A stretch of 64,000 nucleotides of DNA from an uncultured Gammaproteobacteria bacterium. GTDB lineage: Bacteria > Patescibacteriota > Microgenomatia > Levybacterales > GWA1-39-11. A model generated the notes under the pieces. It did no database searches and was not told the DNA's origin. It worked only from the letters and a program-made list of their open reading frames with translations. The position numbers and the translations under genes are program-made. The stretch spans positions 1,005 to 65,004 of the forward strand of contig CAZXND010000002.1 in assembly GCA_964641355.1 (NCBI GenBank), in the 5' to 3' direction. Positions within the stretch are counted from its first letter, which is position 1; every line of letters begins with the position of its first letter. This document shows positions 11,902 to 60,027 of the stretch, piece after piece.

Positions 11902-12756
11902 TTAAATTTCTAAGTACGCTACGAGAGGTTTGTGGTCAGACCCATCTAACGATAACTTTTCACATTTTGAAGATGAAATATTTTTTACCCATAGGTAGTC
12001 TAGCTTTTTTCTAATATGAACTTGGAGCTTTTTTATTAGAAATTCTAAAACCTTTCTTCCTTTGACTAAGTTAATATTGTTTAAATCCGCAGTCCATCCA
12101 GTATCTTTTGAAATGTCTCTAAATTCTCCACCCATAACCTCCTTGTGCATTACCATTTCTTTTCCGCTTTCTAGCAAATCAAAACTATTGAAATCCCCAC
12201 AAACTATTTCGTGATAAAACTTATTTTTTTGTAAATTATTCATTAAATATTCAAGTTGTCTTTTTCTATTTTTCAAACCCCCATTTTGATCGAGGTGTAC
12301 ATTAGTCACTCTAACCTTCTTTGTATTAGTGAGCTCGAAACAGCCAATTATTACCCTCCTCTGAAAAGATTCCATAACACCACCCACAATCCATGAGAAA
12401 ACTTTCTCATGAATTGCTAAAGTGGAATATTTAGGAAGAAACACTTTCTGTTCGCTTTCTAGCTTTAGTACCTTTGTATTCCAAATAATGCAGTTACCCA
12501 TTCCCAATATAGATTTTTCTGCGCCGAGATTACAGATAGCCTTCCACTCCCCACCTAATTCTTTCAATAACATGTCCACCATAAAGGTTTTACCAGGACC
12601 CCAAACGACCTCTTGCAAACAAAATAGGGACACACCCTTATTTGTCATATTTATAATATTATCTATCAGCCTCTCTCGATTAATAGAAAACTGAATATTA
12701 TAAGTGGCAATTATTAATTCTTTTTTTGCTTTTATATTTATATTATACCTTTCCAA
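11902..12756 (-). CDS. endonuclease/exonuclease/phosphatase (EEP) family protein
   Basis: 'ATYNIQ', 'FCLQEV', 'TNVHLD', 'GDFNS' and C-terminal 'SDHKPLVAYLEI' are EEP catalytic-site signatures. Its start overlaps the stop of the upstream PHP gene. Confidence 0.65.
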   Translation of the reverse strand: MERYNINIKAKKELIIATYNIQFSINRERLIDNIINMTNKGVSLFCLQEVVWGPGKTFMVDMLLKELGGEWKAICNLGAEKSILGMGNCIIWNTKVLKLESEQKVFLPKYSTLAIHEKVFSWIVGGVMESFQRRVIIGCFELTNTKKVRVTNVHLDQNGGLKNRKRQLEYLMNNLQKNKFYHEIVCGDFNSFDLLESGKEMVMHKEVMGGEFRDISKDTGWTADLNNINLVKGRKVLEFLIKKLQVHIRKKLDYLWVKNISSSKCEKLSLDGSDHKPLVAYLEI

Positions 12757-52703: not shown

Positions 52704-53801
52704 TCAGTCAATTGAAAGAGTATTCTTGTGAGAGAACTCAAATCCGATTGAAGAAAGAATTCCAAGAATAATAAAATTTGTTAGAAGAGAACTCCCTCCA
52801 TGCGAAACAAAAGGTAGTGTGATCCCCACAATAGGCAAAATTCCAATATTCATCCCGATATTAAATAAAACATGCGTAAGTAGAAGAAAATAAAAACCAA
52901 TTACAATTAAATATGAAAACTGATCGTCAATACTACGGGAAATCTTGTAAATCCTAGACATAATTAATAAAAAGAGAATAATTATTGAGGCTGCCCCAAG
53001 GAAACCGAAGTTTTCAGATATTGTGGCAAAAATAAAATCCGTATGACGCTCAGGTAAAAACTTAAGTATTGATTGAGTTGCAGACCCGAGCCCTTTACCC
53101 ATAAATCCTCCACTTCCAATAGAGATAAGTGACTGAATCGAGTTATAAGATGATCCAAAGGGGTCTTGGGAGGAGTTTAAAAAAGATAGAATTCGCTGCT
53201 TCTGATAATCATGAAGAAGATTAAATATAAAAGGTGCAGGAATCAAAATCGCAGTACCTAATCCTAAAAAGTAAGAAATCGGAAAACCATACATAAAAAG
53301 CATAAAAACAATAGAAGAAAGATAAATTATTGCATTACCCAAATCGGGCTGTCTTAAGGTAAGAAAAAATATAGGAAAAAGCAGTAGTAAAGCTATTATA
53401 AACTTAGAAAACGATCTCGAATCATCCTTTGATAAAAATGCAGCAAAGAAAATAATTGTAAATGGCTTCATTACTTCAGAAAATTGGATTCTAAGACCAC
53501 CTATTTCAAGCCATCTAACAGCCCCTTTAACCTCAATTCCGATCAAAAATAGCAGAATTAAAAGAATTACCATGGTGATATAAATTTGCCTAGAGTATAT
53601 TCCAAATATTCTATAGTTGATATTAAGAAATACGAGATAGGCAACAAGTGAAACTACTAAAAAGACGATTTGCTCTTGAAATAAGATAGGCGAAAGAGAA
53701 AAAAATGTTGCCATACTCAACCCCACAAGAAGTAATACTGGGATTAACAGGGAAAAGTCTATTCTATTAAATGAGAATCGATGACCAGCTCGCTCACGCA
53801 T
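52704..53801 (-). CDS. SEDS family peptidoglycan glycosyltransferase (FtsW/RodA)
   Basis: 10 TM segments. 'PERHTDFIFATISENFGFLGA' and 'LPFVSHGGSSLL' are SEDS signatures. Confidence 0.85.
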   Translation of the reverse strand: MRERAGHRFSFNRIDFSLLIPVLLLVGLSMATFFSLSPILFQEQIVFLVVSLVAYLVFLNINYRIFGIYSRQIYITMVILLILLFLIGIEVKGAVRWLEIGGLRIQFSEVMKPFTIIFFAAFLSKDDSRSFSKFIIALLLLFPIFFLTLRQPDLGNAIIYLSSIVFMLFMYGFPISYFLGLGTAILIPAPFIFNLLHDYQKQRILSFLNSSQDPFGSSYNSIQSLISIGSGGFMGKGLGSATQSILKFLPERHTDFIFATISENFGFLGAASIIILFLLIMSRIYKISRSIDDQFSYLIVIGFYFLLLTHVLFNIGMNIGILPIVGITLPFVSHGGSSLLTNFIILGILSSIGFEFSHKNTLSID

Positions 53802-56688
53802 TTTTACGAGTGACTTTAAACTCTCCCATAGATAAATTATCTATAAGAGCTCTTTTCTTCATTTCCTCTGTGAAAGATTCAGGCCAAGCAGGAAGAAATA
53901 CATCGATCCTCTCGTTTAAACCGGTTCCTAGTTTTTTCCTTTCATCTTGAATTTTTCTTATCAAATCTCGAAACTCTCCTTCGGCCTCTAGCTCTGGAGT
54001 CAAATGCGTATCCAAGTTGACCTTAAACCCTGATTCATCTGTAGCTTTTACTTCCGACTTTTCATACACTACCTCTTTAACATTTAATTCGTCAGCAATA
54101 ATCTTCTCAATCTCAGAATTTAATTTCTTAGAAGAAGTGTATGTTATCTTTTTCAACGGTTGCCTAACTTTCATACCAGCTTCTTTTCTCTTTGCGTGTG
54201 CAACTTCAACTATTTGTCTTGCAAAACTCATTTCTTCCTCAAGATTCTCATCAATCAGACTTTCATCCGCATCCGGCCAATCTGCAAGATGAACAGACTC
54301 CTCACTGGTCAAATTCCTATAAATTTCCTCAGACACAAAGGGAATGAAGGGTGCTAATGCCTTGGTATACTCAGTTAATACCTCCCACAAGGTTTGGAGC
54401 GCTTCACTTCTGCCCTTTTTATCGCTTGAATTAATTCTCTCCCTATTTCCTCGAACATACCAATTTGACAGATCGTCAATAAATATTTCAGCGTCTTTTA
54501 CAGCTTCATATGCCTTATACTGTTCAATTCCTTTTTCCGTTAAATTTTTTAAACTTTTATTCATTCTCGAAATAATCCATCTGTCGAAAGTGTTCGAGGA
54601 ATAAGAATCTCTCACTTCTTTTTTTGGACTCCATTCATATAGATTAGAGTACATTACTAAGAAGGAATACACGTTCCAGTATTTTAAGATAATCATCCTT
54701 CTTATCTCGTTTGTTACGTGAATTCCAAAATTAACGTTATGCTCAGGGTTTGTACGCAGATATAACCACCTCATAGCATCTACGCCTATTTTATCTGCTG
54801 ATTCATTAAACTCTAACGAATTACCCTTACTTTTATGCATCTCCTCTCCCTTTTCGTCTCTAACTGAACCAAAACCAAGAACTCTTTTAAAAGAGTTCGT
54901 CCTTTCAAGCACGGTGCTCATTGCTATAAGAGAGTAAAACCAATTTTTAAACTGACCAGGAAAGGATTCTGTAATAAAATCTGCAGGAAACCAATTAGAA
55001 GGCATCGTTGAGAATGGCACAATGCCAGCATCAAGCCACGGATTACCTACATCGGGAATTCTAGAAATCTTTTTTCCACATTTACTACATTTTATTTTTA
55101 TTTGGTCTATCCAGGGCCGATGAGGAGAGTTACCATCAAACTTTTCCCATCCTTCCACTGCTTTATCCTTTAACTCGTCTCTTCCTCCTATGACTTCAAA
55201 AGTTCCACAATCTTTACATTCCCATATTGGCAAAGCTAGACCCCAATATCTTTTTTTACTAATTAACCAATCGTGTAAGTTTTTTAACCAGTCCAACTCT
55301 CTATCTAACCCCCACTCAGGCATCCATTTTATTCTCTTCGCCACTTCAATCATTTGCTCTCTATAGGTAGCTCTGTTTAAATCTGGTGTATCCATCGCTA
55401 TATACCATTCATCTACAACTCTCCATACAAGTTCACTCTTACATCTCCAGCAAGTTGGATATCTATGTGCATATTTTTCTGTGGAATGAATAAACAGTCC
55501 ATTATCTTTTTCTTTAAGAAAGTTAATTATTAACTCTGGATGTTTCTTTGCACTTTTTCCCGTAAATTCATTCATCCCAGATATATAAGTAGCATCTTCT
55601 TCGATAAGACTGAGTATGGGAAGATCATTTTTTTTACCAAGCTTGAAGTCTTCTTCTCCTGCACCAGGAGCAACATGAAGAAGACCGGTACCTTCTGTTT
55701 CTGTGACCACATCTCCTCCATCAATCACACGATGAACGTAATCTCCAAATGTTTTCTTGACTGAAGGCAACGAATCAAATGGACCTTCATATTTATATCC
55801 AACTAGCGACGTCCCTAGGGTCTCCTTGCCTAATAATTGACGTGAGGATAAAATTCCCTTTTTAATTAGAGCTTGGGATCTTTTTTTCATAACCCAGACA
55901 TAATTACCTCTTGTATCCTCGTATTTACCATATGTTTCCTTTCCGTTAACAGCAACTGCGACATTAGCAGGAATAGTCCAAGGGGTAGTCGTCCAAACAA
56001 GTAAAAATTCGTTCGGCTTATTTGTAATGGGAAGTTTAAAATAAATAGTTTCATGAGTAATTTCTTTATATTCTTCAGTCAAAATTTCATGTTGAGAAAT
56101 TGCTGTTCCGCATCTCGGGCACCATGGAACTGCATCATGCCCTTTATAGAGCCATCCCTTTTCATTAACTTTCTTAATAAAATTCCAAATCGTATAGTTG
56201 TTCTTATCGGAAGAAGTATGGTAAGAGTTGTCCCAATCCATAAAATAACCTAGTCTTTTAGATTGTTCTGTTTGAATTTCTGAGAATTTTTTAACTCTTT
56301 CTTTACATAGATCTATGAACTTTTCTAGACTTTTAAACTTATCTCCTGACACTAAAGTCTCTATATCCTTTTTACTCCTAAGCCCCAACTCTTTTTCAAC
56401 TTCAACCTCAACCCATAATCCCTGCTCATCAAAGCCGTTTTGAAAACGCTGTTTTTTTCCCTTCATATTCCAAAATCTTTGCCAAAAGTCCTTATACGTT
56501 CTTCCCCAAGCATGGTGTACCCCCATGGGATTATTAGCTGTAATCGGGCCATCAAGAAAGGAGAAAGTCTCTTCGGAAGAGTCATTTTTATGAAGGTATT
56601 TATCAACAATTCCACCCTCATACCAATCTCTCAAGAGCTCGTTCTCAAGCCTAATGAAGTTTATTTGAGAGGATACAGGTTTAAACAT
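53794..56688 (-). CDS. ileS: isoleucine--tRNA ligase
   Basis: HIGH-type 'PMGVHHAWGRT', KMSKS 'MHKSKGN' and a zinc-binding 'CPRCGT'. 964 aa. Confidence 0.95.
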   Translation of the reverse strand: MFKPVSSQINFIRLENELLRDWYEGGIVDKYLHKNDSSEETFSFLDGPITANNPMGVHHAWGRTYKDFWQRFWNMKGKKQRFQNGFDEQGLWVEVEVEKELGLRSKKDIETLVSGDKFKSLEKFIDLCKERVKKFSEIQTEQSKRLGYFMDWDNSYHTSSDKNNYTIWNFIKKVNEKGWLYKGHDAVPWCPRCGTAISQHEILTEEYKEITHETIYFKLPITNKPNEFLLVWTTTPWTIPANVAVAVNGKETYGKYEDTRGNYVWVMKKRSQALIKKGILSSRQLLGKETLGTSLVGYKYEGPFDSLPSVKKTFGDYVHRVIDGGDVVTETEGTGLLHVAPGAGEEDFKLGKKNDLPILSLIEEDATYISGMNEFTGKSAKKHPELIINFLKEKDNGLFIHSTEKYAHRYPTCWRCKSELVWRVVDEWYIAMDTPDLNRATYREQMIEVAKRIKWMPEWGLDRELDWLKNLHDWLISKKRYWGLALPIWECKDCGTFEVIGGRDELKDKAVEGWEKFDGNSPHRPWIDQIKIKCSKCGKKISRIPDVGNPWLDAGIVPFSTMPSNWFPADFITESFPGQFKNWFYSLIAMSTVLERTNSFKRVLGFGSVRDEKGEEMHKSKGNSLEFNESADKIGVDAMRWLYLRTNPEHNVNFGIHVTNEIRRMIILKYWNVYSFLVMYSNLYEWSPKKEVRDSYSSNTFDRWIISRMNKSLKNLTEKGIEQYKAYEAVKDAEIFIDDLSNWYVRGNRERINSSDKKGRSEALQTLWEVLTEYTKALAPFIPFVSEEIYRNLTSEESVHLADWPDADESLIDENLEEEMSFARQIVEVAHAKRKEAGMKVRQPLKKITYTSSKKLNSEIEKIIADELNVKEVVYEKSEVKATDESGFKVNLDTHLTPELEAEGEFRDLIRKIQDERKKLGTGLNERIDVFLPAWPESFTEEMKKRALIDNLSMGEFKVTRKNA

Positions 56689-56771: not shown

Positions 56772-56936
56772 TTATCTTCTATTTTTCCTCGCTACTTGTT
56801 TTAAATTTGCACTGTAACTAATTAAACCAGTTCCATTAGAACTGCTTCCTTCACTGGAAGAACTACACAAGGCATACTTAGTATTATAGCTCTTCTCGTC
56901 AGAAATTTTGCTAACTGTTATTTTAACTCTTTTCAT
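56772..56936 (-). CDS. small ORF (54 aa), candidate RiPP precursor peptide: MKRVKITVSKISDEKSYNTKYALCSSSSEGSSSNGTGLISYSANLKQVARKNRR
   Basis: Hand-translated; below the ORF-track length cut-off. Strong SD AGGAGGTG (plus 56941-56948) 4 nt before the ATG. A Cys/Ser/Gly/Thr-rich core follows a Lys-rich N-terminal segment. Lies immediately downstream of, and co-directional with, the YcaO and SagB-type genes. Confidence 0.4.
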   Translation of the reverse strand: MKRVKITVSKISDEKSYNTKYALCSSSSEGSSSNGTGLISYSANLKQVARKNRR

Positions 56937-56957
56937 ATTTCACCTCCTTTCAATGCA

Positions 56958-57000: not shown

Positions 57001-58533
57001 TTAAGGAAACGGGTGAGGCAATGGAGGGAAAGAAGTCCAAGGATTTATTTTCAGTTTCAAATCTTGAGGCACTTTTTTTATTCTATCAAATCCCAATGGT
57101 TCTAAACCATACCCAAAAGAAATCGGGACAAAACCTAATATATAAGACCTTAAAACAACAACTCCTAGCTCACTGAGATCTTTAGGTGACATATCAACTA
57201 CAATTATTTTATTATTTTTACTTATTAGAATTTCAACTAAATCTTTTAAGCTTTTTTTATTGTCTGTATTCTTCTTTTTCAGAATTTGAGTGGTCCCCTG
57301 CCACAAAAACTCGGCTTCTTTTGCAAATTTAATGTTTCTAAATAGAGATGAGTGATGTTTAACTTTCTTTACTGCCTGGGGGTTATTCACCTTAGGGGGT
57401 TTAGAGTCATCTCTATACTCCCAATAGACCGCTTGCTCAATTTCTGATAAAGCTTTATCTATTGATCGTTGAATATTCAAGTTGGCTGCAGCTCCTAATA
57501 AAATTACCGGATTATTTTTATTTTCAGCAATTGCCATAATAATTGGTATTGTGTCTAAGGTGATATCTATAAGATGAACTTTTAAACCAAGAGACTCAAT
57601 CCTGTGAACTCTAAGCTGAAAGGATCTAGAAAGAGATTTTAGATCAATCTTAGGCAAAGAAAGTCTATTGAGCCAAACAATCATAAAAGCATCTCTTTCA
57701 ATGACTTCATATAAGCCTCTCATTAATGCATCATTGTATGAAAAACCAGAAGCCACACCATTTGAATTTGCAACCGTCAATGGGTTAGGCGCATATTTTT
57801 TCTCTATTGGATAATAAATTAAGTCGATTGGAACAAAAGTGGTTTTCTCTCCAGGGAAAATCGTTGCTTTATTCCAAAAATATTTTCTCCTTTCTGAGAA
57901 CGGTCTAATTATTAAGTTTTTTCTGTATTGCTTTTTTAGATAAAAAACTAACTGCGTGGAATCAAACAATAAGTTATTAATATCTATTAACTTGCTCTCG
58001 AATATTTTCTCCTTGGGAAGAACACCACTGTAAAACCTTTCTACTCCTTCCATTATTGCTTTTAACTCTGCAATGACCGGATCCTTATCTATTCCAGAAG
58101 TCCATTCAACTCTTCTTCTAGAACCCCGCCTAGAAACAAACTTAGCACTAAATAAAGTAGTATTAATAGGTTTATATTTTGACTTTTTAGGATCGAGTTT
58201 ATAAATTTTTTTTATAAACCCACTTCTTCCTACCACTCTATTTCTCAAGCTACAAAGTGTCTCTTCCATTGTATTTGACTTCAAAACGCTTTGCGAGTTA
58301 GAAAAATTAACAATTTTTCTCTTATGTAGTAAATTAAGCACATTGATATTTTCTTCGTTTTCTTTTGCACTGTATGCTTTTTTACCTTCTAGTATTAGAT
58401 ATAACTCCTCCATCTGTTTTTTTTTGTTTTTTGGAAATTTCAAGTGAACATTTTTATCGTATGTAATAAATTCTAAACCGTTAATTATTGGTCTTAAATT
58501 CCATTTTGAATTTATTTTTACCCACTTTTTCAT
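57001..58533 (-). CDS. YcaO domain protein (ATP-dependent cyclodehydratase-type) with ~110-aa N-terminal extension
   Basis: YcaO hallmarks: 'AIMEGVERF', 'SNGVASGFSYNDALMRGLYEVIERDAF' and the Pro-rich C-terminal tail 'PPLPHPFP' (PxPxP). Its start overlaps the stop of the upstream SagB-type gene (TAATG). Confidence 0.85.
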   Translation of the reverse strand: MKKWVKINSKWNLRPIINGLEFITYDKNVHLKFPKNKKKQMEELYLILEGKKAYSAKENEENINVLNLLHKRKIVNFSNSQSVLKSNTMEETLCSLRNRVVGRSGFIKKIYKLDPKKSKYKPINTTLFSAKFVSRRGSRRRVEWTSGIDKDPVIAELKAIMEGVERFYSGVLPKEKIFESKLIDINNLLFDSTQLVFYLKKQYRKNLIIRPFSERRKYFWNKATIFPGEKTTFVPIDLIYYPIEKKYAPNPLTVANSNGVASGFSYNDALMRGLYEVIERDAFMIVWLNRLSLPKIDLKSLSRSFQLRVHRIESLGLKVHLIDITLDTIPIIMAIAENKNNPVILLGAAANLNIQRSIDKALSEIEQAVYWEYRDDSKPPKVNNPQAVKKVKHHSSLFRNIKFAKEAEFLWQGTTQILKKKNTDNKKSLKDLVEILISKNNKIIVVDMSPKDLSELGVVVLRSYILGFVPISFGYGLEPLGFDRIKKVPQDLKLKINPWTSFPPLPHPFP

Positions 58534-59519
58534 TAAACTCTTCCCCCAATAAATAAAGTTGTTAAAACAGCCTCCAAAGGAAACTTTAACTTCACAAGTC
58601 TTGAAAATTCCTCATCCTTAAACCCAGATATCTCAACGATGCCTAAATTATTCTCAGCACACCAAAGATATGCATTCTGTGCTGCATGCCCAGCCTCTAA
58701 AAGAGCGTACCGATAACCCCTATTAGAATATTTCCTCGTAGTCTTAGCAAAATCAGCAGCTATCGCAATACATAATGACGAATGTTGTAAAAACGGTTGC
58801 TTACCAAAGAATGAAGAATTCATTTCTGGAACAGAAATTTTTTTTAAAAATTTTATTTTTCCATTATGAAAACCGTACACTCCCTTTTTAAGAGACCCAA
58901 GTTTTTTCAAACAAATAACACGTATTTTTAAGGGATACAAAGCACCTCCAGAAGGAATAGTCCCAAACCCAACTCTATTTTCTAAAGAGGCTCTTTTAAT
59001 CTTTCCGTACACTGCCCATATCACTCTATTAAATTCATCCTCACTAACTGCAGTTTTGCTGAAATTTCGCATCGAACTTCTAGCTTCCATTAGCTTCTCG
59101 AGGTAAGTTCTTGATGTAAATTTGGGAGAAAATAATCGACTATTTTCTTTAAATATACTTGCTAATTGTCCACTATCTAAGGACTTGAAATAAGCCATTG
59201 GATTAGAACTTATAAAATGATAAAGCAGATAATAACTATGGACATCTACCAGTACAGAAACGTCGAGCAACTCACTAATTACAGATACGATCTCTTTCTC
59301 CTTATACTTTTTTTTCGAAATGATATTTTCAACAATTTCTTTCCCAGTTCTAAAACCGTTGCAAAGCTTGCAAATTTCATTTACCAACGCCAAATCCGCA
59401 CCATTAAGAGTGATTAGTGTATTTGGCAAAAGAAAGCTTATTGAATCATCTTCGGTATATGAATAACCAGAAACGAATGGGTAGACGGAATTAATTTCTT
59501 TTCTTTCTTTTTTGATCAT
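58533..59519 (-). CDS. SagB-type (nitroreductase-fold) dehydrogenase with N-terminal PqqD-like RRE-like segment
   Basis: Nitroreductase/SagB motifs 'EARSSMRNF' (RRSxRxF-like), 'TIPSGGALYPL' and 'YRYALLEAGHAAQNAYLWCAENNLG'. N-terminal 'ITLNGADLALVNEICKLCNGFRTGKEIVENI' resembles PqqD/RRE. Confidence 0.8.
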   Translation of the reverse strand: MIKKERKEINSVYPFVSGYSYTEDDSISFLLPNTLITLNGADLALVNEICKLCNGFRTGKEIVENIISKKKYKEKEIVSVISELLDVSVLVDVHSYYLLYHFISSNPMAYFKSLDSGQLASIFKENSRLFSPKFTSRTYLEKLMEARSSMRNFSKTAVSEDEFNRVIWAVYGKIKRASLENRVGFGTIPSGGALYPLKIRVICLKKLGSLKKGVYGFHNGKIKFLKKISVPEMNSSFFGKQPFLQHSSLCIAIAADFAKTTRKYSNRGYRYALLEAGHAAQNAYLWCAENNLGIVEISGFKDEEFSRLVKLKFPLEAVLTTLFIGGRV

Positions 59520-59721
59520 ATGGAGACATGCACGGAGACATTATAATCCAACTTATACTCAGCTTCAATGTTTTTTATTCTAGAATTAAGAAAAATTGGG
59601 AATTACTTGAGGATCAACTTTTTTAAACATAAATCACGATTTAATCAATTAGGTTCAATTTTAGCCTAAAAAGAGGATTTGTTCAACCTTAAAGTTCTAA
59701 ACCTTATTACTTAGCTAAGAA

Positions 59722-60027
59722 TTAAGACTTTTTATTTAAAACATGAACTTGATCGGGGTAAAGAATTGTGGCTTCTGAAAAATCAAAACCATCCCAAGCA
59801 AGTCTTCGAATGCGATCAAAAGCATAAACTACAGGTAAATGTGGCATTGGACAATCTTCTGTTTTTATTAAAATAGACACTTCAGGGTGCACTTTTACAT
59901 CGAATGAACTATTAACTCCCATAAGGTTTTGTCTTACAGCTCGTTTGTATTCAGCAAAATTTATACCCACAATAACTTTATCAGCTTTACTAATTGGCAA
60001 ACTCGCTACTATAGCCTCTTTTTTCAT
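59722..60027 (-). CDS. hypothetical protein (101 aa)
   Basis: ORF between ftsZ and the SagB-type gene. No recognised motif and no SD. Confidence 0.35.
   Translation of the reverse strand: MKKEAIVASLPISKADKVIVGINFAEYKRAVRQNLMGVNSSFDVKVHPEVSILIKTEDCPMPHLPVVYAFDRIRRLAWDGFDFSEATILYPDQVHVLNKKS

Follow-up and report, generated by a model that had tools for sequence, protein, structure and literature searches.

A SagB-type azoline dehydrogenase with a predicted N-terminal RiPP recognition element in a putative, compact three-gene azole-peptide cluster of a patescibacterium

We analyzed a 64,000-nucleotide stretch of DNA (the window) from an uncultured bacterium (assembly GCA_964641355.1, contig CAZXND010000002.1, positions 1,005 to 65,004) that is labelled as a member of the Gammaproteobacteria in GenBank and placed in the Patescibacteriota (Microgenomatia; Levybacterales; GWA1-39-11) by the GTDB taxonomy. 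The minus strand of the window contains an open reading frame (ORF) of 328 aa (58533..59519, containing ISFLLPNTLITLNGADLALVNEICKLCNGFRTGKEIVENI...VSVISELLDVSVLVD) that encodes a SagB-type dehydrogenase dependent on flavin mononucleotide (FMN), and downstream of it, in the same orientation, lie a gene encoding a YcaO protein of 510 aa and a gene encoding a small precursor peptide, with the same three genes found in three assemblies. The N-terminal segment of the dehydrogenase has the predicted fold of a recognition element (RRE) of the kind present in enzymes that modify RiPPs, peptides made by the ribosome and modified post-translationally. We consider it reasonably probable that the protein is a two-domain azoline dehydrogenase, built on the plan of the oxidase BmdC, in a compact cluster of three genes that would produce a linear azole-containing peptide (LAP), where the RRE docks the leader of the precursor peptide and the dehydrogenase and YcaO act as a complex.

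An initial annotation of this DNA had described residues ~25-90 of the dehydrogenase (59250-59447, which is exactly residues 25-90) as PqqD/RRE-like. Structure prediction and comparison with PqqD/RRE structures bore this description out and widened its extent slightly, with the predicted RRE-fold domain covering aa ~12-93 (59241..59486, minus strand) and the interval first described falling inside it. The AlphaFold2 (AF2) model of the full-length protein, built on a 78-sequence alignment, has a predicted local distance difference test (pLDDT) score of 92.1 and a predicted template modelling (pTM) score of 0.88, and a second model, restricted to aa 8-100 and derived from 39 sequences, reached a pLDDT of 93.1. 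In both models, strands occupy residues 19-23, 26-31 and 34-39, three helices follow (43-52, 59-67 and 74-86), and residues 90-92 form a short strand. Since this order is strand-strand-strand-helix-helix-helix, the segment agrees with the strict definition of an RRE, i.e., three strands followed by three helices from N- to C-terminus (PMC12710340). A Foldseek search of the Protein Data Bank (PDB) with the isolated N-terminal domain demonstrated that 19 of the 20 top matches are RRE-bearing RiPP enzymes. The best of these is TruD (4bs9; E 3e-3, TM-score 0.65, root-mean-square deviation 2.6 A over 85 columns), and LynD, the PbtF RRE, TbiB1, ThcOx, TbtB, McbB, CteB and a lasso B1 protein are also among the matches. 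At the level of the predicted structure, this enrichment for RREs is unambiguous despite modest E-values, and the modelling confirmed that the N-terminal segment of the dehydrogenase has a predicted RRE fold.

Homologues of the dehydrogenase show that this segment is a regular part of the protein. Our search of 5.8 billion proteins identified 108 homologues, of which ~90 are full-length (320-335 aa) and come mainly from metagenome-assembled genomes (MAGs) of Patescibacteria, together with one high-GC clade. The N-terminal segment is kept in the ~90 full-length homologues, with the consensus F.LPGREVTIEG..E.L..LL..CNGYRT.EEI....E...L...LL...ILVD, and residues F29, C53 and G55 are invariant. Mean pairwise identity among the homologues is 0.36 in the RRE domain versus 0.46 in the oxidase (Ox) domain, which, with the three invariant residues, points to an RRE domain that is conserved and under selection. 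The Pfam family PF05402 (PqqD) is matched weakly by 14 of 39 family members (best E 1.2e-3, below the Pfam cut-off), Lant_dehydr_N is matched by six of the 39 and PaaA-like_N by one, and a profile search of the PDB with the N-terminal domain places PaaA and PqqD in the top 10 (E 0.6-0.8). Support for an RRE from these profile matches is weak but consistent.

The remainder of the protein is an oxidase of known type. The C-terminal 185 residues are those of a SagB-type FMN dehydrogenase, with a match to PF00881 at aa 145-323 (E 9e-17, 62.1 bits; cut-off 23.5), and the protein scores 88.4 bits against TIGR03605 (cut-off 78.4). Foldseek matches of the full-length model are BmdC, ThcOx and McbC (E 1e-12 to 2e-15). 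These three lines of evidence place the FMN-dependent azoline dehydrogenase domain at aa 141-328 plus the stop codon (58533..59099, minus strand). A Lys-Tyr pair, K263-Y264, lies inside KYSNRGYRYALLEAGHAAQN (KYSNRGYRY), and Y264 is invariant in 78 homologues; a conserved Lys-Tyr motif reportedly sits beside the FMN site in SagB/ThcOx-family azoline dehydrogenases. With scores above the curated cut-offs and an azoline-oxidase-like fold, the 328-aa protein is a member of this family.

We screened 80 species-level genome loci with local profile hidden Markov models (HMMs), which sorted them into three classes. In 37 non-redundant loci, an RRE-Ox protein occurs with a YcaO, which is fused to the RRE-Ox protein in 25 and encoded directly downstream in 12; three further RRE-Ox genes are truncated or lie at contig ends, where the downstream context is hidden. 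The 12 loci with a separate YcaO divide equally between a short YcaO of the type seen in the window (504-515 aa, six loci) and a long YcaO (606-666 aa, six loci). The 25 loci with a single RRE-Ox-YcaO polypeptide (708-782 aa; L009, L016, L017, L020-L023, L026-L035, L044, L045, L047, L053, L055, L072, L074 and L085) derive mainly from Saccharibacteria and further Patescibacteria; two belong to Clostridia MAGs, and at least one bears the label Gammaproteobacteria. In these fused proteins, the spacer between Ox and YcaO has a median length of 73 aa, equal to the usual ~70-aa pre-domain of YcaOs found beside RRE-less oxidases, from which it follows that each fused enzyme has just one RRE, carried N-terminally on the oxidase. 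The remaining class consists of RRE-less Ox proteins of 190-310 aa in 45 loci from archaea, Nitrospirota, Bacteroidales and others, and a family-specific HMM detected a YcaO nearby in 2 of these 45. An exhaustive HMMER search with the RRE profile through 1.84 billion representative proteins returned 317 hits (representative clusters) at E<=1e-3. With hit lengths concentrated around ~320 aa and ~730 aa, and with the domain nearly always at residues 1-90, this RRE subtype is tied to the Ox and YcaO module. The order of dehydrogenase, YcaO and small ORF is kept in relatives at 54% identity and below, and other neighbouring genes vary.

The third gene of the cluster encodes the precursor peptide MKRVKITVSKISDEKSYNTKYAL|CSSSSEGSSSNGTGLISYSANLKQVARKNRR (whole ORF MKRVKITVSKISDEKSYNTKYALCSSSSEGSSSNGTGLISYSANLKQVARKNRR; 56772..56936, minus strand), which is 54 aa long, begins 64 bases beyond the YcaO gene, and is predicted as a gene in each of three independent assemblies. 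It is preceded by a strong Shine-Dalgarno sequence, AAAGGAGGTG, at 56950..56941. The leader covers about aa 1-23 and contains the strand-like VKITVSK, and Cys, Ser and Gly are abundant in the core. The C-terminal tail of this precursor is also strongly basic (KQVARKNRR). Homologous small ORFs with many Cys, Ser and Gly residues also border the module in relatives: a strict automatic filter identified them in 24 of 37 loci, at ~3x the density found elsewhere in the same loci, and ~5 more were recognized by eye. Leaders in these peptides are short (15-25 residues), and an N-terminal motif of the form hydrophobic-x-hydrophobic-x-V-x-x-(R/K) is common to all three architectures; examples are VKITVSKISDEK (window), IKIEVHRISDEK, LKIVITERRLTDEL, LQIKVTKRNLTKEL, FEITVTERDL, KIVVRVRPY and LITVLRRPY. 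Beyond this shared motif, leaders in clusters with separate enzymes often add R-x-L-(T/S)-D-E-(L/K), and those in clusters with a fused enzyme often contain R-P-Y. Because the fused enzymes carry no other RRE, the oxidase-borne RRE is the most economical candidate for a reader of the leader motif, and the existence of RRE-Ox-YcaO relatives with a single RRE, together with the conserved leader motif, makes binding of the leader by the dehydrogenase RRE plausible.

The YcaO encoded downstream of the dehydrogenase is a cyclodehydratase of the SagD family, of the kind found in pathways for LAPs and thiazole/oxazole-modified microcins (TOMMs): it scores 221.7 bits against TIGR03604, just above the cut-off of 219.25, matches PF02624 with an E-value of 2e-53, and ends in a proline-rich tail (PPLPHPFP). 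Its closest solved relatives are MusD, TruD and LynD. At 58531-58535, the stop codon of the dehydrogenase gene and the start codon of the YcaO gene overlap as TAATG, with a purine tract, GGGGGAAGAG, just upstream, which suggests that the two genes are translationally coupled. The YcaO domain starts at about aa 150 (within the remainder of the gene, 57001..58293, minus strand; TIGR03604 and PF02624), so that ~150 aa precede it, ~80 aa above the usual length. Profile comparisons suggest that these first ~80 aa (WNLRPIINGLEFITYDKNVHLKF...ELYLILEG...NINVLNLLHKRKIV; 58294..58533, minus strand), a conserved extension, are RRE-like over aa ~4-80. A clear RRE pattern is present at the N-terminus of the long-YcaO relatives and of a 761-aa protein (P0124), and a nine-sequence profile of these N-termini aligns with the dehydrogenase RRE profile with an hhalign probability of 97.6% (E 4e-12, 69 columns). 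The N-termini of the short YcaOs in turn align with the long-YcaO N-terminal RRE profile with a probability of 89.5% (E 2e-6, 75 collinear columns), with a deletion of ~8 residues where helix 2 is expected; reversed-sequence controls gave <1%. Direct comparison of the short-YcaO N-terminus with the dehydrogenase RRE gave a probability of just 55-65%, and the link between the two is otherwise transitive, via the long YcaOs. The short YcaO N-terminus had no meaningful match in PDB profile or Pfam scans, and a search with a profile of aligned YcaO N-termini yielded two fragments and nothing more. On the profile comparisons, the extension is probably a shortened RRE-like domain from which the helix-2 region has been deleted.

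This arrangement can be compared with that of LynD, TruD and MusD, where the YcaO chain likewise begins with an RRE, the position also taken by the RRE of the long YcaOs described here and by the probable RRE-like domain of the short ones, and the N-terminal RRE of LynD/TruD is also the top structural match of the dehydrogenase N-terminal domain. In LynD, TruD and MusD, however, an E1-like domain of ~300 aa lies between RRE and YcaO, whereas the window protein has just ~150 aa ahead of its YcaO domain, with an RRE-like part that is short of one helix. Among five long YcaO relatives (the YcaOs of L007 and L008, P0124, P0131 and P0132), no NCBIfam E1-like model (TIGR03603/TIGR03882 type) matched the 250-390-aa extensions, and Pfam gave weak, generic winged-helix matches only for the same N-termini. 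The likeliest origin of the window YcaO, judged from these comparisons, is a LynD/TruD-type RRE-E1-YcaO fusion that has lost the E1-like part and kept a trimmed RRE.

In canonical LAP/TOMM synthetases of the BCD type, exemplified by the microcin B17 synthetase McbBCD and by SagBCD, a YcaO-catalyzed cyclodehydration is followed by FMN-dependent oxidation on a core rich in Cys, Ser and Gly, which is also the chemistry predicted for the cluster described here; the difference is that leader binding falls there to an E1-like C protein of its own (McbB). The initial annotation had reported that no C protein is encoded in this region, and our examination agrees. The cluster is flanked by housekeeping genes only, with FtsA, FtsZ and other dcw genes on one side and isoleucyl-tRNA synthetase (IleRS), an FtsW/RodA-like protein, L21 and L27 on the other, and no gene for an E1-like or Ocin-ThiF-like C/F protein was found over about 10 kb on the FtsZ side or through L27 on the other side. 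No ThiF-type Pfam match was obtained among 20 mid-sized ORFs elsewhere in the window, and local probes with the RRE profiles and with the middle region of a long YcaO relative matched no other ORF in the window, although two distant ORFs (1027-2055 and 11902-12756) have no Pfam match and C proteins are hard to detect. The cluster thus appears, from these searches, to differ from a canonical BCD synthetase in that no E1-like/Ocin-ThiF partner was detected, either separate or fused to YcaO. The same annotation had proposed to account for the lack of a SagC homologue by the RRE on the dehydrogenase. This explanation stands in part: the dehydrogenase carries a predicted RRE and no C gene was detected, but the YcaO has a probable RRE-like extension of its own, and because profile comparison links its N-terminal ~80 aa to the same RRE type, the dehydrogenase alone is probably not the replacement for the lost C protein.

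The domain arrangement of the dehydrogenase had also been put forward as unusual, and here published work says otherwise, since an RRE combined with an FMN oxidase is known from BmdC, with its wrapping linker, from the RRE-oxidase ThcOx, and from TfxB/TfxC. The closest of these is BmdC, the thiazoline oxidase of the bacillamide nonribosomal peptide synthetase (PDB 7LY4/7LY7), which consists of a 96-aa RRE-like winged helix, a 45-aa loop that wraps around the partner protomer, and an Ox domain at residues 142-325 (PMC8795117). It is the best structural match of our full-length model (7ly7_B; E 2e-15, 341 columns, TM-score 0.63), ahead of ThcOx and McbC, and the two proteins share the same three-part plan and nearly the same length (329 aa in BmdC versus 328 aa), with aa 12-93, 94-140 and 141-328 as the parts of the window protein. 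The segment at aa 94-140 (59100..59240, minus strand), which links the RRE to the oxidase domain, is the predicted counterpart of the ~45-aa wrapping loop of BmdC and McbC. In its predicted structure, the window dehydrogenase therefore matches the BmdC-type didomain of RRE-like domain, wrapping loop and Ox almost residue for residue; sequence similarity between the two is detectable in the Ox domain only. The substrates differ as well: BmdC acts on a dipeptide bound to a peptidyl carrier protein, which has no leader, and its authors view the RRE-like domain as a non-functional remnant of a RiPP oxidase (PMC8795117), whereas the gene for the window protein belongs to a RiPP cluster that also encodes a YcaO and a precursor bearing a leader. 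The window dehydrogenase has the wrapping loop and Ox domain in common with McbC, whose sequence alignment begins at aa 85 of the dehydrogenase; McbC has no N-terminal domain (PMC8795117).

ThcOx/CyaGox (PDB 5LQ4) is likewise an FMN oxidase of the SagB/ThcOx family with N-terminal RRE domains, described in 2016 as two peptide-clamp domains that fold like the domain with which TruD binds its leader (PMC5108345), and it is matched both by our full-length model and by the isolated N-terminal domain. It differs in having two tandem clamp domains, of which the second is buried, in belonging to pathways with an RRE-E1-YcaO heterocyclase, and in having no wrapping loop (PMC8795117). By description, the trifolitoxin (tiarin) cluster is similar in that its YcaO, TfxE, has no E1-like partner and its sole RRE-bearing enzymes are the SagB-type FMN dehydrogenases TfxB and TfxC (bioRxiv 10.64898/2025.12.02.691738). 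It differs in its product, which has a Gln-derived chromophore and one thiazoline, in its precursor type, and in the use of TfxB and TfxC as a pair.

In the mechanism that we propose, the short leader (~23 residues) would place its alternating-hydrophobic VKITVSK motif along strand 3 and helix 3 of the dehydrogenase RRE, where it would become the fourth strand, in keeping with the general description of RREs as binding a strand-forming recognition sequence as a fourth strand (PMC10634744). The dehydrogenase, which by analogy with BmdC is probably a dimer, would work with the YcaO as a complex; the YcaO would turn Cys and Ser residues of the CSSSS...SSS core into azolines, and the tethered oxidase would convert these to azoles. 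The shortened RRE-like N-terminal domain of the YcaO, a probable remnant of an RRE-E1-YcaO fusion, may help to dock the leader or may be vestigial. A broader proposal, for which we have appreciably less confidence and which we put forward only tentatively, is that this mostly patescibacterial family dispenses with the E1-like/Ocin-ThiF partner altogether, the oxidase RRE recruiting a leader of ~15-25 residues and licensing the YcaO, such that recognition for cyclodehydration has moved onto the dehydrogenase.

Several observations weigh against an RRE on the dehydrogenase that acts as the leader-binding site. The Foldseek E-values are modest for a 93-aa domain, with the best at 3e-3 and none <=1e-3, and residues 1 to ~140 of the window dehydrogenase matched no curated family, with no PF05402 match at E<=1. 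Constructs of BmdC without the RRE-like domain still oxidize (PMC8795117), the role of the clamp domains of ThcOx is a suggested one (PMC5108345), and known azoline-forming YcaOs usually need a partner for activation and binding (PMC12596934). In addition, six relatives combine a full RRE on a long YcaO with the dehydrogenase RRE, and because both are present in these six, the dehydrogenase RRE is not simply a substitute for a missing RRE; the leader in this cluster could in fact be bound by the RRE-like domain at the N-terminus of the YcaO.

The last of these points leads to the strongest alternative, namely that the dehydrogenase RRE is an inherited relic, retained for folding, dimerization or contact with YcaO, and that the leader is read by the N-terminal domain of the YcaO or by the YcaO active site alone. 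We regard this as unlikely, while giving it real weight. BmdC sets a precedent, in that it keeps the domain with a substrate that bears no leader and remains active when the domain is removed, and both the RRE-related extension on the window YcaO and the full RRE beside the dehydrogenase RRE in the long-YcaO relatives would provide another reader. The 25 fused enzymes, however, have no RRE on the YcaO side, and a leader motif of this kind is nonetheless present in their precursors; the N-terminal domain of the window YcaO is the more degenerate of the two, with its helix-2 deletion and low direct match to the dehydrogenase RRE; and the dehydrogenase RRE retains its invariant residues and a confidently predicted full fold. 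A further alternative is that both N-terminal domains are functional RREs and that each enzyme docks the leader independently, in turn, with no stable complex. The presence of two RRE-type domains in one operon would suit such a scheme, as would the micrococcin system, where cyclodehydratase and dehydrogenase alternate on one RRE scaffold (PMC10634744), but the overlap between stop and start codon, and the fact that the two enzymes are often fused, suggest a physical complex, and a short YcaO N-terminal domain that lacks one helix makes its binding of peptide uncertain; we consider independent docking improbable. Finally, two readings that would give the segment no part in recognizing peptides, as a winged helix that binds DNA or as an N-terminal extension general to housekeeping nitroreductases, can be set aside as very improbable, since weak profile matches to MecI/BlaI and Lrp-like regulators (E 0.15-0.35) and to HTH_47 (6 of 39 members) are outweighed by an RRE-type order of secondary structure, by structural neighbours that are RiPP enzymes and not regulators, by the link to YcaO in 37 of 37 RRE-bearing loci with a visible downstream context, and by the absence of the segment from the 45 RRE-less Ox homologues. 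We thus favor a dehydrogenase RRE that docks the leader within a complex of dehydrogenase and YcaO.

Examination of the surroundings of the module identified several further features. In the 200-bp gap upstream of the dehydrogenase gene, a consensus scan found a promoter-like site, TTGAAG-17-TATAAT (59540..59568, minus strand; 10 of 12 matches); the count of such sites around the dehydrogenase is no higher than in shuffled sequence, and the promoter assignment is tentative. An ORF of 101 aa between ftsZ and the dehydrogenase gene (59722-60027, minus strand) was considered as a further member of the cluster and rejected, as it has no Pfam, NCBIfam or PHROGs match and is not conserved at the locus of a relative with 54% identity (L004). 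No peptidase or transporter gene adjoins the window cluster, and no DUF2268 gene is present in it. A DUF2268 gene recurs beside the module in relatives (L006, 8927-9787; L008, 233-874; L009, 7952-8593); DUF2268 is a predicted metalloprotease family, and the product of this gene could act as the leader peptidase. Genes for aminoacyl-tRNA synthetases lie within a few genes of several clusters, i.e., IleRS in the window (53794-56688), an arginyl-tRNA synthetase in L008 (7232-7922) and an Asp/Asn-type enzyme in L005 (1720-3039), and L008 also contains an ABC-F-like ATPase and an S66 (MccF-like) peptidase. A tiarin-like link between these synthetases and immunity was considered and not adopted, as their proximity is compatible with chance in small, gene-dense genomes. 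In L007, from the high-GC clade, a 384-aa gene without a family match (404-1558) overlaps the start of the dehydrogenase gene, and its product might be an additional protein for tailoring or a partner; behind the gene for the 612-aa YcaO of this locus come two 64-aa precursors in tandem, with KCKCKC cores.

LAP clusters have been described previously in the candidate phyla radiation (CPR). As reported in passages of Sharrar et al. 2020 (PMC7298704), 110 such clusters occur in 93 genomes, with a nitroreductase gene adjoining YcaO in 89, and the combination of YcaO, nitroreductase and small precursor resembles the cluster in the window. The example cluster presented there has a peptidase gene, whereas the window cluster has none. 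The passages of that study concerned with these clusters describe YcaO, nitroreductase and peptidase genes, and in them RREs, a missing C protein and fused forms are not mentioned. The fusion of an RRE to an oxidase has itself been documented before (ThcOx in 2016, BmdC in 2022 and trifolitoxin TfxB/C), and the fold assignment by itself changes little. In the open-access literature, we found no description of single-chain RRE-Ox-YcaO enzymes, nor of a C protein being replaced by RRE-type domains spread over the two catalytic subunits. The remaining interest of the present findings lies in this apparent spread of RRE-type domains and in the widespread single-chain RRE-Ox-YcaO enzymes.

If the oxidase RRE guides both steps, the result would be a very compact azole system, consisting of a 328-aa dehydrogenase, a 510-aa YcaO and a leader of ~23 residues, or of one enzyme of ~730 aa. 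Such systems would be the smallest self-contained azole synthetases, comprising two proteins or a single ~730-aa chain, and would be attractive for peptide engineering. They would also inform the question of how a YcaO cyclodehydratase can function when no E1-like activator is present, and the cluster described here adds detail to the little-studied secondary metabolism of the CPR/Patescibacteria.

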